Positions 18,439-24,602 of a stretch of 31,661 bases of DNA are shown here, piece by piece. The notes below the pieces were generated by a model, which saw nothing but the letters and a program-made list of their open reading frames with translations, searched no databases and was not told the origin of the DNA. Positions within the stretch are counted from its first letter, which is position 1, and each line of letters begins with the position of its first letter. Both the position numbers and the translations under genes were made by a program. This DNA comes from a virus. The stretch lies in IMG/VR virus record IMGVR_UViG_3300016484_000355; one strand, 5' to 3'.

Positions 18439-18785
18439 TGTCATCACTCACCACTATAGACTGGGATGTTGTAGGCGAATACCTCATGGCAGGATGCTCT
18501 GGGGTAGAAGTAGCCGCACAGCTCGGCATCCACGAAAACACTCTGTATCAACGATGTAAGTCTGATCTCGGAGTCGATTTTGTGGCATTTAAGCAAGAAA
18601 AGCAAGCATCAGGAGAAAGCCTCCTAAGAAAGGTCCAATTCGATGCAGCTATTAAAGATAAAGACAGAGCAATGCTAATCTGGTTAGGTAAGCAAAGACT
18701 CGGTCAGAAAGAAAAAGGCGAGCAAGATATTAAGGTTGATGGCGGCATTAACATAGTATTCAAGCCAGCCAATGAGACAAGTTGA
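18438..18785 (+). CDS. Terminase small subunit, 115 aa
   Basis: HTH segment VEVAAQLGIHENTLYQRCK, directly upstream of and overlapping the large terminase gene. Confidence 0.7.
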   Translation: MSSLTTIDWDVVGEYLMAGCSGVEVAAQLGIHENTLYQRCKSDLGVDFVAFKQEKQASGESLLRKVQFDAAIKDKDRAMLIWLGKQRLGQKEKGEQDIKVDGGINIVFKPANETS

Positions 18786-19935
18786 GATTCGATACACAAG
18801 TGTCTTTGAAAGGAACTTGCAAGCCTATCAGGCCAAACAGTATAGAGTAATTGCCAACCAAGGCTCTACCCGATCTGGCAAGACCTACTCAATAAGTCAA
18901 CTACTCGCTCTTTACATACCGCACAAGGAAAAGGTTACTATCTCAGTGGTAAGCCCATCTCTACCCCATCTTAAACGAGGGGCCAGGAGAGACATCCTAA
19001 AGATATTAGAGGATGCCGGGCTATACTCTGATGACAACTTTAACAAGACCGATAATGTCTATCACTATCCTAATGGCTCATATATAGAGTTCTTTGGGGC
19101 TGAAGATTCTGGTAAGGTTAGAGGACCGGGAAGAGATATACTGTATATCAATGAGGCTAATTTATTGCCACATTCGATTTATCAGCAGTTAGCCCTTAGA
19201 ACTAAGCAAACCATCTTTCTGGACTTTAACCCAGTAGATGAGATGAGCTGGGTCTATGATATCTCGGATAGAGAAAGCAATATCCTAATCCACTCGACCT
19301 ATAAAGACAATCCATTCTTGCCAAGTGAGCAGATAGCAGAGATTGAAAGTCTGAAAGATGCAGACGAGAATCTATGGAAGGTCTTTGGGTTGGGAGAGAG
19401 GGGTAAGTCATCAGAGATTATCTACACCCATTGGAGGCAAGGTCAGTTCCCAGAAAATTGCGAGACCGTTTATGGTCTGGACTTTGGGTACTCAGTGCCA
19501 ACAGCCTTAGTCAAAGTAGGGTTTCACGAAAGCCAGACATTTGTCAAGGAATTGCTCTACGAGACCAAGCTAACTACCACCGATTTGATAGAAAGGCTGA
19601 AGCTCTTAAACATCAGGAGGTCAGATGAGATTTACTGTGATGCTGCTGAGCCTAAGACTATCGAGGAGCTGGTAAGGGTTGGGTACAATGCCAAGCCTGC
19701 TGAGAAGGATGTCTATGCTGGCATCCAGAAGGTCAAAAGCCAGCCATTGATAGTATCACCTGAGTCTATAAACCTGATTAAAGAGATAAGGTCCTACAAG
19801 TGGAAGGTTGACAAAGATGGCAAAGTTCATCCAGATGAGCAGCCAGTCAAGATGTGGGATCACCTTTGCGATGCAATGCGGTATGCTATATATACAAAAC
19901 TAAACAAGCCTAAGTTTGAGGTGATGGCTTGGTAA
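18772..19935 (+). CDS. Terminase large subunit, PBSX/Terminase_3 type, 387 aa
   Basis: Walker A QGSTRSGKTYS, Walker B-like DILYINEAN, and a C-terminal nuclease region with GLDFGY and DHLCDAMRY. Confidence 0.85.
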   Translation: MRQVEIRYTSVFERNLQAYQAKQYRVIANQGSTRSGKTYSISQLLALYIPHKEKVTISVVSPSLPHLKRGARRDILKILEDAGLYSDDNFNKTDNVYHYPNGSYIEFFGAEDSGKVRGPGRDILYINEANLLPHSIYQQLALRTKQTIFLDFNPVDEMSWVYDISDRESNILIHSTYKDNPFLPSEQIAEIESLKDADENLWKVFGLGERGKSSEIIYTHWRQGQFPENCETVYGLDFGYSVPTALVKVGFHESQTFVKELLYETKLTTTDLIERLKLLNIRRSDEIYCDAAEPKTIEELVRVGYNAKPAEKDVYAGIQKVKSQPLIVSPESINLIKEIRSYKWKVDKDGKVHPDEQPVKMWDHLCDAMRYAIYTKLNKPKFEVMAW

Positions 19936-19944
19936 AGAAATACA

Positions 19945-21690
19945 ATGGGCAGAATACAAGATGCGTGGAATGCGTTAACAAAGAAGGCAGTGCCGATGAT
20001 GCCGGTAGGTCAGCCCTTTGCTTCCTATCAGGTAACTGGAGGCACTTTTGTCGGTATTACTGACAACCGTACTAACTACATCCGGGATGGCTACCAAGTT
20101 AATGACATTCTTTATTCTACAATAACTCTAATAACTGATAAGGTAAAGTTGCCTGAATGGTCAACTTACAAGGTGGTCGATGAGGCTGCCTTTAAATCTT
20201 ATCAGGGATTGATGAGAAAAAAAGACATCTCTACTGAGGACTTCCAAAAGGCAATGGGCTATAAGAAAAAAGCCTTAGAGCCTATCTATGTTGACAGACT
20301 TACAGAGCTTTTAAGATACCCTAATGACTATGAGACCTTTCAGGATTTAGTAGCCAACTCAACCGGGTGGAAGCTAATCACTGGAGGTCGCTGTGTTTGG
20401 GCTCAGATGCTCGACATGGGAGCCAATCAGGGTAAACCATACCAACTGCACAACTTACCTTACCAAGAGGTATCTATCATAGCTTCGACCAATCTGTTCC
20501 CTATCGTTGAGGAAGGGTACATGATTCCGGTCCTTTCTAATGCCTTATTCCCTAAGAGTCAGGTCTTACATGATAAATACCAGAACTATGACTGGGATGT
20601 TAATGGAGCCCATCTGTACGGAATGAGCCCACTTAAAGCTGCCCTGAGAAGGTTAAGCAGAAGCAACTCGGCCATCAAAGCCAGTGCCGCTATGTTAGAG
20701 AACCAAGGGGTAAAAGGTGTGCTATATGTCGATGACCCAAGAGTTATCGGTGGAGGGGTAGATGTAGCTGATACAAGAAAACAAGTAGAAGCTATTAAGA
20801 GTAAACTCGTAGGCAAAGGAGAATGGGTAGGATCAGAGAACTGGGGCCGCATTGGTGTCTCTGGTTATAAGATGGGATGGCAGTCTGTTGGGCTTAACCC
20901 AGTAGAGCTATCCATTATAGACTCTGAGAAATGGGATTTGAAGCGGTTTGCATCCGTTTATGGAGTGCCTTCTCAGTTGGTAGGAGATAGCGAGAGTTCG
21001 ACATATAACAATGTTAGAGAGGCTGAGAAGGCCCTTACGACTCGCTGTGCCATGCCAGCTCTGGTTTCATTTAGGAACCACTTTAATCGTAAACTACAAA
21101 CAGACTGGGGATATAAAGGTCAGAATGTCTATATCGACTTTGACCATACGGTATTTACTGAACTCCAAGAGGATGTAGTCGAGAAGTCAAGCTGGATTAA
21201 GGACCTCAAAGCCCTTAGCCCGAACGAGCAAAGAATGCACTTAGGCCTTGAAAGAATAGACAATCCTCTGTTTGATGAGCCTTGGATAACTACACAAGAT
21301 GGAATGCCATTAAGTGAGTACGAGACTCCAAACATGGACATCCCAGATAGTACCGATTTACCAAAGTCTTTTAAGTCAGAAGGCGAGAAAGTATCATTTG
21401 ACTATGATGGTGTCTTATCTACTGCTAAGGGTAAAGAGGAGGCTATGAGTGAGATTGAGGATGGATCAACAGTTTATATCATCTCTGCTCGGTCCGACAA
21501 GGAAGGAATGTTAAAGACTGCTAAAGACTTAGGCATCCCAGCTTCAAGAGTGTATGCCACTGGCTCTAACAAGGCAAAGGTGCAAAAGATAAAGGATTTA
21601 GGAATATACAAGCACTATGACAATAATCAAGATGTCATTGATGCTTTGCAAGATACAGAAACAGAAGGAGAGCTGTTTAATGACGATTGA
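19945..21690 (+). CDS. Portal protein, 581 aa, with a C-terminal HAD-like phosphatase domain (residues about 483-581)
   Basis: Position after TerL and size fit a portal. Portal-like region GVPSQLVGDSESSTYNNVREAEKAL. The C-terminus has HAD motifs FDYDGVL, IISARS, K-rich, and YDNNQD. Confidence 0.8.
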   Translation: MGRIQDAWNALTKKAVPMMPVGQPFASYQVTGGTFVGITDNRTNYIRDGYQVNDILYSTITLITDKVKLPEWSTYKVVDEAAFKSYQGLMRKKDISTEDFQKAMGYKKKALEPIYVDRLTELLRYPNDYETFQDLVANSTGWKLITGGRCVWAQMLDMGANQGKPYQLHNLPYQEVSIIASTNLFPIVEEGYMIPVLSNALFPKSQVLHDKYQNYDWDVNGAHLYGMSPLKAALRRLSRSNSAIKASAAMLENQGVKGVLYVDDPRVIGGGVDVADTRKQVEAIKSKLVGKGEWVGSENWGRIGVSGYKMGWQSVGLNPVELSIIDSEKWDLKRFASVYGVPSQLVGDSESSTYNNVREAEKALTTRCAMPALVSFRNHFNRKLQTDWGYKGQNVYIDFDHTVFTELQEDVVEKSSWIKDLKALSPNEQRMHLGLERIDNPLFDEPWITTQDGMPLSEYETPNMDIPDSTDLPKSFKSEGEKVSFDYDGVLSTAKGKEEAMSEIEDGSTVYIISARSDKEGMLKTAKDLGIPASRVYATGSNKAKVQKIKDLGIYKHYDNNQDVIDALQDTETEGELFNDD

Positions 21691-21877
21691 TGAGATAGTA
21701 CGCACAACCTATCCGGTAACAAAGAGGGAGAGGTGTTGTGCATTATTGAAAGCGAAAATGGATGCCAAGAGATTGGCTCTAAAAAATAGGTTGATGGATG
21801 ACCGACAAAGAGAGAAAAGAGTATGCGGAGAACTTCTCGAGGACCAATCGGAAGTTTGCCAAAACGCACTTTCCTAA
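21680..21877 (+). CDS. Doubtful 65-aa Cys-containing ORF
   Basis: Its ATG overlaps the portal stop by 11 nt, but the ORF overlaps the MuF-like start by 80 nt. Confidence 0.25.
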   Translation: MTIDEIVRTTYPVTKRERCCALLKAKMDAKRLALKNRLMDDRQREKRVCGELLEDQSEVCQNALS

Positions 21878-22616
21878 GGTCAAAAGACAACTAGATAAGG
21901 TTGTCAGCTCTTTGATAGGTACAATAAAAAAAGTTGGAGCCAGACAAGCTCAGACAAGACTAAGGACACAGCTTTGGAATGATGAACTCTATAAACCAAT
22001 AGAGGCCATCTACAAGCAAGTAGGTCTCTACCATGCCAACCAAATGTATAAGCTAATCCGAAGGGAGGCTAACCAGAAAGGGATAGGCAGAGATGAGAGA
22101 TGGATAGCCTTTATTGTTGATGAGCTAGAAAGGACCTTGCTCCAGTTTGCGGTAGTCAAAACCTCAGAGACACTTAGAAACCATTTACTACTCGTTTTAC
22201 AGAATGCTATCATAAAAGAGCAAACCGTAGATGAGATAGTAAAGATTCTACAAGACTCAGGGTTTACAGCCATGCAAGCCGAAAGGATTGTGAGAACGGA
22301 GGTAGGTCGGGCAGCCAACACTGGGATAAAGGCAGCAGCCGAGTCTTTTGACTACGCAATGGTCAAAGAATGGATTGCCTTTAGAGATTCAAGGACCAGA
22401 GGTTTTAAGCCAGAGCAACCTAAAGACCACTTTAACATGGATGGTCAGGTGGTTGACTTTTACGACAATTTTGTCGATCCTAGGAGTGGAGAGAATATAG
22501 AATATCCTTTAGCTCCCAGTGGCTCGGCAGCGATGGTCATAAATTGCAGATGCTCTTATATTGTTGTACCTAAAAGAGATAGTAGAGGAAGACTAATAAA
22601 CAGGGGAGGTGCTTGA
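21798..22616 (+). CDS. Minor head protein, SPP1 gp7 / Mu F-like, 272 aa
   Basis: RIVRTEVGRAANTG...DSRTR...HFNMDGQVV...INCRCSY pattern, located after the portal. Confidence 0.8.
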   Translation: MTDKERKEYAENFSRTNRKFAKTHFPKVKRQLDKVVSSLIGTIKKVGARQAQTRLRTQLWNDELYKPIEAIYKQVGLYHANQMYKLIRREANQKGIGRDERWIAFIVDELERTLLQFAVVKTSETLRNHLLLVLQNAIIKEQTVDEIVKILQDSGFTAMQAERIVRTEVGRAANTGIKAAAESFDYAMVKEWIAFRDSRTRGFKPEQPKDHFNMDGQVVDFYDNFVDPRSGENIEYPLAPSGSAAMVINCRCSYIVVPKRDSRGRLINRGGA

Positions 22617-22683
22617 TCGACTACGGTCAATACTGCGGAATAATGAAACAATAACCAGGGTCAACCCTCCCAAAATATTGAAT

Positions 22684-23451
22684 ATGAAAAGATACTTTGA
22701 ACAAAAGACAGTAAGCAACTCGGTGCAGGATGTTAGCACTACCACTAGAAAGGTAAAGGTAGCTATCAGCCAGATGGGCAGTAAGGACTTTGATAACGAT
22801 GTCATTGACCACAATGCCTACACTAAGACACTAACAGAAAGAGGTCCTAAAGGTGCTAACCTTATTTGGCACTTAACAGACCACAATCCGAGTCTTAAAT
22901 CAGCCATTGGCAAGTTCTCTGAGCTGTATGTAGAAAAGGACTATCTGGTAGGAATTACCGATGTGCCTAACACTACATGGGGCAACGATGTCCTAGAGTT
23001 CTACAAGTCTGGTCATATTAACCAACACTCAGTAGGCTTTAGAACTATCAAGCAAGAAAACCAGAAAAGTGTAGAGGGTGAGTATAACCTCATCAAAGAG
23101 ATTCTGCTTTTTGAAGGTTCGGCTGTACTCTGGGGTGCTAATATCAACACACCTACAATCGAAGTAGGTAAGTCAACCGAGGAGGTTATCAGTCAGCATG
23201 AGAAACTGTCTAAAGAGCTTAGTATGCTCTTAAAGTCATTGAAAGATGGCCGCTTCTCTGATGAGGCTTTTGAGTTTATCGAAATCAGAGTAGCACAAAT
23301 AAACGAGGCAATTAAATCCCTTATATCTATTGAATCCACTCCTAAAGTAGAGCAACCCGCAGAAGCAGTTGTAGAAACCAAGGAGCCGGAGATTGACCTA
23401 AGTGGATTAAAGCATAATTTGAATAATCTATTAACAAAATTAAATTCCTAA
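22684..23451 (+). CDS. Prohead protease (HK97 family) with a C-terminal coiled-coil, scaffold-like region
   Basis: KVKVAISQMGSKDFDNDVI...WHLTDHN...HSVGF...LFEGSAVLWGAN pattern, upstream of the capsid gene. The ATG at 22684 is preferred over the TTG at 22609. Confidence 0.7.
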   Translation: MKRYFEQKTVSNSVQDVSTTTRKVKVAISQMGSKDFDNDVIDHNAYTKTLTERGPKGANLIWHLTDHNPSLKSAIGKFSELYVEKDYLVGITDVPNTTWGNDVLEFYKSGHINQHSVGFRTIKQENQKSVEGEYNLIKEILLFEGSAVLWGANINTPTIEVGKSTEEVISQHEKLSKELSMLLKSLKDGRFSDEAFEFIEIRVAQINEAIKSLISIESTPKVEQPAEAVVETKEPEIDLSGLKHNLNNLLTKLNS

Positions 23452-23453
23452 CA

Positions 23454-24602
23454 ATGGATGAATTGAAAAGCATCGAGACTGCGGTAAAATCAGCTACCGA
23501 GTCAGTAGAAAAGATGAAGGCTGCCAATGAGGCTGCCATTGCTGATGTAAAAAGCCAAGTAGCTGAAGTAAAGGCTGCTGTGGTAATTATGGATGAGGCT
23601 TCTAAGAAGAACCAAGCTGCTCTTGATCAACTAATCGCTGAGAAGTCAGCTAAAAAGGTTGACAACAAGAACAAGTCATTTGGTGAGGCTTACAACGAGG
23701 CTATTGCTGAGGCTTTCGAGGCTAAGCAAGCTGAGTTAAAAGAGTTCCAAAAGAACAAGAATGCTAAGTTGACTATTGACCTGAAAAGTGTCGGTACAAT
23801 GACTATTGGTAACAACCTTACCGGAGATGGTCAGGCTACTTACAACCAACGTCAAGGTTTGGTTCCTGCTCAGAAGATCAACTTCCGCGACCTGATCCCT
23901 ACTGCTGTATCTCCAACTGGACTTTATGTTACTTATCGTGAGACTGGTACAGAAGGTTCAATCGGAATCCAGACTGAGGGTAACCCTAAGAGCCAGATTG
24001 ACTACGACCTGACTGAGGTTAAAGTAGTATCTGACTACATTGCTGGTTTTGCTCGTTTCTCTAAGCAGATGATGTTCCAACTGCCTTTCTTGCAGAACAC
24101 TTTGCAGCGTATGTTGCTCCGTGATTTCTACAAAAAAGAGAACAGCACATTCTTTTCTACTGTAGCCAATGCTGCTACTGGTTCAACTACTACCTCTGCA
24201 ACTGTTGATGCCGAGCAACTGGTTGACTGGATTGCTAACCAACTGGCTGCTGATTTCGATGCCTCATTTGCTCTGGTATCTTACCAGCAGTGGGCTCGTT
24301 TGCTCAAAACTAAGCCTATGGATTACTCTGTACCTGGTGGTGTTGTTATCGACCCTGCTGGTAATGTCCGTATCGCTGGTGTACCTGTAATCGGTGCATC
24401 TTGGGTAACTGATGACAAAGCCCTTATCATCGACTCTAATTATGTAGAGCGTGTTGAGACTGAAGGTTTGCGTGTTGAGTTCTCTTATGAGGATAGCGAC
24501 AACTTCCAAAGAAACTTGGTAACTGCTCGTGTTGAGTGCTTCGAGGACATTAACCTCCTGCGCACTGATGCTGTTATCTATGCTGACTTTGGTAATGTCT
24601 AA
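23454..24602 (+). CDS. Major capsid protein, HK97 fold, 382 aa
   Basis: N-terminal coiled-coil delta-like domain. Follows the protease and is followed by a strong terminator. Codon usage looks highly expressed. Confidence 0.85.
   Translation: MDELKSIETAVKSATESVEKMKAANEAAIADVKSQVAEVKAAVVIMDEASKKNQAALDQLIAEKSAKKVDNKNKSFGEAYNEAIAEAFEAKQAELKEFQKNKNAKLTIDLKSVGTMTIGNNLTGDGQATYNQRQGLVPAQKINFRDLIPTAVSPTGLYVTYRETGTEGSIGIQTEGNPKSQIDYDLTEVKVVSDYIAGFARFSKQMMFQLPFLQNTLQRMLLRDFYKKENSTFFSTVANAATGSTTTSATVDAEQLVDWIANQLAADFDASFALVSYQQWARLLKTKPMDYSVPGGVVIDPAGNVRIAGVPVIGASWVTDDKALIIDSNYVERVETEGLRVEFSYEDSDNFQRNLVTARVECFEDINLLRTDAVIYADFGNV

Follow-up and report, generated by a model that had tools for sequence, protein, structure and literature searches.

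It has been proposed that effector domains carried on the portal protein, on MuF or on the prohead peptidase enter the virion and are then injected with the phage DNA (PMC5512222, PMC9503650). The published head-fused cargos comprise the PBECR RNase, the 2H phosphoesterase, the type I inorganic pyrophosphatase, Nudix and ADP-ribosyltransferases (Iyer et al. 2017, PMC5512222; PMC9503650). T4 Alt and IPI-III and the MuF polymorphic toxins likewise enter the head while it is being assembled, undergo processing by the prohead protease and are delivered together with the DNA (PMC5576092). Enzymes pre-loaded in the capsid, whether known or predicted, would act before any phage gene expression, and the list of such cargos is short. 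The present analysis concerns the IMG/VR virus record IMGVR_UViG_3300016484_000355, a stretch of 31,661 nucleotides (nt) analysed at its whole length and referred to as the window, in which the portal gene continues in frame into a C-terminal domain predicted to have a minimal HAD fold. This portal–HAD fusion adds a predicted phosphatase-type cargo that curated models miss.

As in the published head-fused effectors, the enzyme domain is found on the portal of a terminase–portal head module, its homologs occur on the capsid-processing peptidase and as solo phage genes, and it appears as an accessory, mobile domain. Packaging and injection are inferred for the published effectors just as for this domain. 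The fusion differs from them in that the cargo has a HAD fold and that the main partner of the domain is an XkdF-type protease, inside which it lies instead of being appended. With the T4 internal proteins and the MuF toxins the fusion shares the concept of loading into the head. Those systems rely on a capsid-targeting peptide or on a MuF anchor, whereas the portal itself does the anchoring here, and no toxin or immunity pair is evident. Neither 'HAD' nor 'haloacid' occurs as a domain name in PMC5512222 or PMC9503650, and a literature search for this domain as a head-fused cargo found no description of it. Because effector–head fusions are already a published theme, the novelty lies in the HAD cargo and not in the architecture. 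The initial annotation of this DNA had likewise known of no described portal–HAD fusion.

The portal–HAD gene and its homologs

The fusion gene is a single plus-strand open reading frame (ORF) of 581 amino acids (aa) plus stop and, as the initial annotation had reported, runs without a stop codon from the portal body through the tail domain (Table 1). Residues 1–462 are an HK97-family portal. The full-length AlphaFold model resembles solved portals, namely those of RcGTA (6toa, 1.4e-13), HK97 (8cez/8fql) and T5.

The portal–HAD fusion is genuine and not an artefact. The same in-frame fusion was found in more than 20 independent metagenomic sequences from different projects, with neither a frameshift nor a stop separating the two parts, so that the extension, which the initial annotation had proposed to seek on other phage portals, does recur there. 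Protein searches returned the fused portals P0121–P0124, P0128 and P0132–P0135 (64–89% identity, 560–600 aa), and the IMG/VR scan added L010–L018 and L022. The fusion is also present in L001, where the ORF is open to the contig end, and in L092, from a metagenome-assembled genome (MAG) labelled Sediminibacterium. Insertions and deletions in the linker of fused homologs are multiples of three, and the frame is kept despite many substitutions. The pairwise ratio of nonsynonymous to synonymous substitution rates (dN/dS) was 0.03–0.085 for the HAD domain versus 0.017–0.064 for the portal body. In the linker, dN reached 0.2–0.65 in five of seven comparisons, the L010 linker being identical; the linker, whose length differs between homologs, thus changes several-fold faster than either flank in most pairwise comparisons.

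The search for portal homologs gave 924 at E<=1e-20, of which the best 120 were inspected for the domain. Nine of these 120 carry it and the rest end in a short acidic tail, indicating that the extension is not a common element of the portal crown.

One protein, P0003, had appeared as a free-standing close homolog and thus as evidence of a split gene; it was rejected because its contig starts with an Illumina adapter and the protein is truncated. Two public metagenome contigs (L090:1–60 and that of the P0004 N-terminus) start with translated Illumina adapter (..LFRS..), giving false gene starts in the protein database.

Fold and catalytic motifs of the C-terminal domain

The AF2 model of the domain, made with a 35-sequence alignment, had a predicted local distance difference test (pLDDT) score of 97.4 and contained five beta–alpha units. 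A one-turn squiggle-like helix (domain aa 6–10) follows strand 1, and no beta-hairpin flap is present. In Foldseek searches against PDB, the model matched almost only HAD enzymes, including 4nav, AphA, KdsC/YrbI, the CopA P-domain and MDP-1 (best E 5.7e-4, prob 1.00, TMq 0.55–0.68). Its close homologs in BFVD (54–62% identity, template modelling (TM) score >0.9) either bear the name 'HAD-like domain containing protein' or belong to 'XkdF' proteins. When 64 diverse sequences of the domain were combined into a profile, this matched the solved HAD 3kd3 in PDB at E 5.1e-5, motif I being aligned with that of 3kd3, and the matches that followed were mostly HADs (YidA, 4eze and phosphoserine phosphatases). 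In the hhalign comparison with T4 Pnkp (E 4.8e-4), all four motifs were aligned, with an 18-residue gap after motif I.

Conservation of the HAD motifs was counted over 150 cluster representatives (clustering at 50% identity), and the motif residues proved invariant or nearly so, well beyond what chance would give (Table 1). The residue after D559 is Asn in 126 of the 150 and Asp in 16, the latter restoring the canonical DD, and D563 is variable. In the alignment with T4 Pnkp, D486/D488 correspond to D165/D167, S514-A-R516 to S211-G-R213, K545 to K258 and D559-N to D277-D278. Six representatives in which the second Asp of motif I, the general acid, is replaced by His (D7 to H) all lack R35, the Arg of motif II (Fisher's exact 1e-7, not corrected for phylogeny), suggesting that they may form a sub-family with altered chemistry. 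The peptides from which the initial annotation had recognized a HAD-phosphatase-like domain, namely the linker PNMDIPDSTDLPKSFKSEGEK (aa 462–482), FDYDGVL, IISARS, NKAKVQKIK and YDNNQD, are all present, and the span it gave, 21391–21690, was right to within one codon. Its assignment of the domain is backed by independent fusions in homologs, by purifying selection, by the predicted fold and by the matches of the profile to solved HADs.

The domain shares a Rossmannoid core with the capless (C0) HADs (the T4 Pnkp 3'-phosphatase, KdsC/YrbI and MDP-1) and with the class B acid phosphatase AphA, along with the order DxD, S/T(-x-R), K, D(D/N) and the lack of a cap. Because there is no cap, the active site is predicted to be open. 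In known families, the lack of a cap is reported (Burroughs et al. 2006) to accompany either macromolecular substrates or a cap supplied by adjacent subunits. Unlike the capless HADs, the present domain has only about 95–100 residues, versus 128–210 in the solved matches. It differs from T4 Pnkp in an 18-residue deletion at the post-motif-I loop or flap of that enzyme and in the D-N-N of motif IV. No kinase partner is fused to the domain, and those window proteins that were scanned against Pfam gave no kinase or ligase match. Since the similarity is marginal (E 5e-5 at best), we place the domain outside the T4 Pnkp, KdsC/YrbI, MDP-1 and AphA families. As modelled, it is a minimal, capless and flapless HAD fold with an apparently intact catalytic set, and its core of ~95 residues would rank among the smallest HAD catalytic cores, helping to define the minimal requirements of the fold.

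Cassette exchange and distribution of the domain

The closest portal, P0125 of locus L008, is 96% identical and 488 aa long, with an acidic tail at its end and no HAD domain. The DNA of the window and that of L008 are ~93% identical up to position 21342 and from position 21679, with no identity between, so that an in-frame cassette of 336 nt stands in place of a 57-nt acidic-tail segment. Both loci share the portal stop and the three codons before it (N-D-D). A conserved 65-aa ORF begins within these codons, which explains the position of the 3' breakpoint; the ORF is in frame in 17 related loci, fused as well as unfused. The base composition of the cassette is like that of its flanks. The presence and absence of the domain on near-identical portals provide a natural genetic contrast for its function. 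In L008, a distinct KdsC-like HAD protein (GDSAWDIPML motif) is encoded at L008:1–369, ~3.6 kb upstream of the unfused portal; it is a different enzyme and was rejected as a copy of the domain.

In a neighbour-joining tree of the portal body, every fused form fell within one clade, inside which fused and tail-only portals formed alternating sister pairs. The portal-fused copies were monophyletic in the tree of the HAD domain, with an internal order congruent with the portal tree. Furthermore, a second, unrelated portal type (L023, L024, L049 and L058) bears HAD copies of another branch of the domain tree. The simplest reading of these trees would be one old fusion in the lineage that was then repeatedly lost or replaced by another allele, while the domain joined a portal independently at least once elsewhere. 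An old fusion that was kept under selection and yet repeatedly lost or replaced would make the domain selected but dispensable. In two portals of the second, distant type (L024:2687–4891 and L058:1081–3156), the HAD domain is followed by ~200 further residues that end in KGGVNCHHRW, recalling proteins of the MuF/gp7 family, without confirmation by Pfam. The label 'MuF-like' for the C-terminal module in L024, L041 and L043, which Pfam could not confirm, was thus not used as evidence.

The family profile, searched against 1.84 billion representatives, matched 747 clusters (50% identity) at E<=1e-3, of which 285 reached E<=1e-10, with proteins of 87–1769 aa. The Pfam partners in 91 multidomain representatives were Peptidase_S78_2, the XkdF prohead protease (44), DUF3721 (5), KTSC (4), and Peptidase_S78, Phage_portal and SET (3 each), and two giant family proteins have SLT transglycosylase domains. 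The family occurs in 301 IMG/VR contigs. Architectures were assigned for the best 80 of the 301 IMG/VR ORFs, with the HAD domain masked for the classification of partners: 47 were fusions to the XkdF protease and 14 to the portal, giving 61 protease or portal fusions, and 17 were short (<=170 aa). Solo HAD-domain genes lie in varied places, either after capsid genes or directly upstream of the terminase. The family is almost absent from bacterial genomes, with only 8 loci in 185,579 species genomes, all of them in MAGs and mostly of freshwater Bacteroidota type, and the scans of GenBank and the genome collection found it absent from sequenced phage isolates. Judged from these architectures, the domain is a mobile accessory phage module for which fusions to prohead proteases are far more frequent than portal fusions.

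The XkdF fusions have a conserved N-terminal segment (ME/NLPIYEL...AEVSFVALVD.PAI) and a protease region matched by Pfam. In L020, L037, L046, L027 and L032, the HAD domain and other accessory modules lie between this segment and the C-terminal protease region, and the modules look inserted, not appended. A module of ~40 residues, P-x-K-G-E-x-x-D-F-x-x-R-C-...-Q-A-x-A-I-C-x-S-x-W, lies upstream of the HAD domain in L004:4816–4947, L020, L024, L029, L041 and others. Of the best 80 IMG/VR ORFs, 56 have this module, as do 54 of the 150 representatives, and the HAD domain that it precedes may be solo or fused to a protease or portal. Pfam gave no match to the module, which may serve in targeting or metal binding. 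Another module, YP..A..NAK.AL.W.E.NGWG.CGT.VG..RA.QLA......T..RM..F.RH, accompanies the HAD domain in XkdF-type fusions at 21 of the best 80 loci (seen in L037:1277–1561, L027, L032, L043, L095 and L096), and the copy tested against Pfam gave no match.

Proposed role, alternatives and genomic setting

The C-terminal crown of solved portals is directed towards the inside of the capsid. From this known topology we infer an interior location of the HAD domain, and up to twelve copies would then lie inside each virion head. Because fusion to the portal, to the prohead protease and to large virion proteins is a packaged-effector signature, a virion-packaged accessory phosphohydrolase is favoured. 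We propose, with moderate confidence, that the portal-fused HAD domain is an accessory effector that is packaged by way of a head-interior protein and acts around ejection. In this portal, a flexible linker and a 100-residue HAD domain have taken the place of the usual short acidic tail, and in the proposed scenario fusion to a head-interior protein would load the domain into the procapsid. The domain, as a predicted Mg-dependent phosphomonoesterase, would have an open active site that suits a large or macromolecular phospho-substrate. The prohead protease could possibly free it at a conserved K-S-x-G in the linker, and the domain would act at DNA ejection or just after.

In the full-length model, linker residues 461–478 had pLDDT values below 50 and the HAD domain was folded independently (pLDDT 93–96). 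The motif [FMYT]-K-[SA]-x-G-E-K was kept in 10 of 10 fused portals compared, the rest of the linker being variable. The delta/mature boundary of the capsid proteins reads IDLK[SAT]VGT, with K-S-V-G at aa 111–114 of the window capsid protein, and the HK97 protease cuts at K103/S104 (PMC10275583). Cleavage in the linker is put forward as a candidate step only, because the motif is short and L092 lacks its Gly.

Several results weigh against the proposal of a packaged phosphohydrolase. The Foldseek E-values against PDB were just ~1e-3, with TM scores of about 0.55–0.68, and the hhalign probability to T4 Pnkp was 32%. As a single sequence, the domain had no significant match in Pfam, PHROGs or PDB and only weak mixed matches in NCBIfam; no Pfam or NCBIfam HAD model exceeded its cut-off, and the weak matches included non-HAD Rossmann-like families. 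The domain has ~60% of the size of the smallest solved HAD among the matches, lacks the flap and has a single invariant acid in motif IV, and for these reasons it is only a putative enzyme. The domain is present in none of 50,697 GenBank phage records, and no cultured phage carries it. In the linker, L092 reads FKAENEK, the Gly of the motif being lost, and the count of the short candidate cleavage motif in head proteins is near chance.

The weak non-HAD matches could mean that the domain is a non-catalytic Rossmann-like module merely resembling HAD, serving as a structural or ligand-binding crown extension (nucleotide-binding, MGS-like or dehydrogenase-like). This is consistent with the very small size and missing flap and with the matches to ADH_zinc_N, which 28 of 35 members gave at a best E of 9e-5, and to the C-terminal domain of carbamoyl-phosphate synthase. 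Both assignments were rejected, however, as these matches are below cut-off, the glycine-rich dinucleotide-binding loop is missing and the fold and profile matches in PDB are mostly HADs. The near-invariant residues, furthermore, are the HAD catalytic set in the correct order and structural elements, and the coupled substitutions of D7 and R35 point to a working active site, so that we regard a mere resemblance to HAD as improbable. We consider it very unlikely that the HAD domain is made separately from an internal start, with the fusion as a minor product. The Met codon at 21334 (Met464) that the initial annotation had offered as such a start does exist, and several fused homologs have a Met directly before K-S-x-G-E-K that resembles the relic start of a once separate gene. 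Met464, however, is also found in the unfused portal P0125 while most fused homologs lack it, the window has Phe instead of Met at the relic position, no promoter-like site lies upstream (the overall count of such sites being at chance level), and all homologs keep a continuous frame; expression from Met464 is thus unlikely. The notion that an assembly or sequencing indel joined two separate genes had no supporting evidence, the sole 'standalone' close homolog being the adapter-truncated P0003, and the frame kept in more than 20 independent contigs, the linker indels in threes and the strong purifying selection on the domain render it exceedingly improbable.

With a genuine HAD fusion, the domain might nonetheless stay on the portal crown and work in the producing cell or in the capsid instead of in the next host, its targets being the packaged DNA end, the terminase and packaging, or phosphate or DNA sensing that gates packaging termination or ejection. 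Portal topology sets the domain beside the DNA channel, capless HADs such as T4 Pnkp, with which the motifs align, act on nucleic-acid ends, and cleavage of the linker is itself hypothetical. Portals that are 96% identical lack the domain, however, making it dispensable for packaging and ejection, and its more frequent occurrence on prohead proteases or free-standing in non-structural positions is a misfit with a mechanical role specific to the portal. A crown-tethered function is thus rather unlikely, though it deserves some weight. Two bolder possibilities are speculative and have a low probability when taken together: a crown ring of twelve domains, capped by their neighbours as in KdsC tetramers, might be a phosphatase whose target is the end of the genome or a factor for packaging or ejection, or the released domain might, within seconds of injection, dephosphorylate an immune signal of the host or a phosphoprotein. 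If either were true, the domain would represent a new class of anti-defence enzyme, and its family, very widespread in freshwater phages, would have gone unrecognised before. The packaged accessory effector remains our preferred reading.

Table 1. Positions of the portal–HAD gene, its parts and other features in the window
Feature	Position	Strand	Description
Portal–HAD fusion gene	19945..21690	+	Pfam Phage_portal (PF04860) at aa 117–432, E 6.5e-32, above cut-off
Portal body, HK97 family	19945..21330	+	aa 1–462; unfused relatives up to 96% identity
Flexible linker	21331..21387	+	aa 463–481; ~19 residues, disordered
K477-S-E-G480, candidate prohead-protease cleavage motif	21373..21384	+	Conserved linker motif; cleavage hypothetical
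Minimal HAD-like domain (predicted)	21388..21687	+	aa 482–581, 100 residues, then stop
HAD motif I, D486-Y-D488 (nucleophile, Asp+2)	21400..21408	+	FDYDGVL; D5 146/150, D7 141/150
HAD motif II, S514-A-R516	21484..21492	+	IISARS; S/T33 150/150 (136 Ser, 14 Thr), Arg 140/150
HAD motif III, K545 (K64)	21577..21579	+	Within NKAKVQKIK; Lys 150/150
HAD motif IV, D559-N-N (D78)	21619..21627	+	Within YDNNQD; Asp 148/150
In-frame cassette, 336 nt	21343..21678	+	In place of the 57-nt acidic-tail segment of L008 (DNA alignment)
Conserved 65-aa ORF, MTIDEIVRTTYPVTKRERCCALLKAKMDAKRLALKNRL...	21680..21877	+	Starts within the last portal codons; sets the 3' cassette limit
Large terminase	18772..19935		Adjoins the portal gene on the upstream side
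MuF-like minor head protein	21798..22616	+	Pfam Phage_Mu_F, E 1.6e-10
S78 prohead serine protease, candidate processing enzyme	22609..23451	+	Pfam Peptidase_S78, E 2.7e-11
HK97-fold major capsid protein with N-terminal delta domain	23454..24602	+	Pfam Phage_capsid, E 1.2e-12
D-x-D-x-T look-alike in the portal body, YIDFDHTVFTEL	21130..21159		Portal aa 396–405; outside the HAD domain
Calcineurin-like metallophosphoesterase, 323 aa	7552..8523	+	Pfam Metallophos, E 2.9e-8
ORF of 1529 aa	977..5566	+	No Pfam match
ORF of 565 aa	27633..29330	+	No Pfam match

The gene order terminase, portal–HAD, MuF-like protein, S78 protease and capsid protein is that of a standard phage head module. The DNA of this module had no match among GenBank phages, and the closest portals from cultured phages, those of Cellulophaga and Flavobacterium phages, have ~28% identity. 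The 65-aa ORF downstream of the portal gene overlaps the start of the MuF-like gene in a different frame.

A nearly invariant look-alike of D-x-D-x-T is located in the portal body, with D398 invariant and D400 and T405 conserved in >90%. This DFDHT look-alike attracted solo HAD proteins in a MAFFT alignment, and the full-length portal alignment used here was built without solo HAD domains. Elsewhere in the window, the calcineurin-like metallophosphoesterase represents a second phosphoesterase of the phage, and the ORFs of 1529 aa and 565 aa probably encode tail or tape-measure-type proteins.

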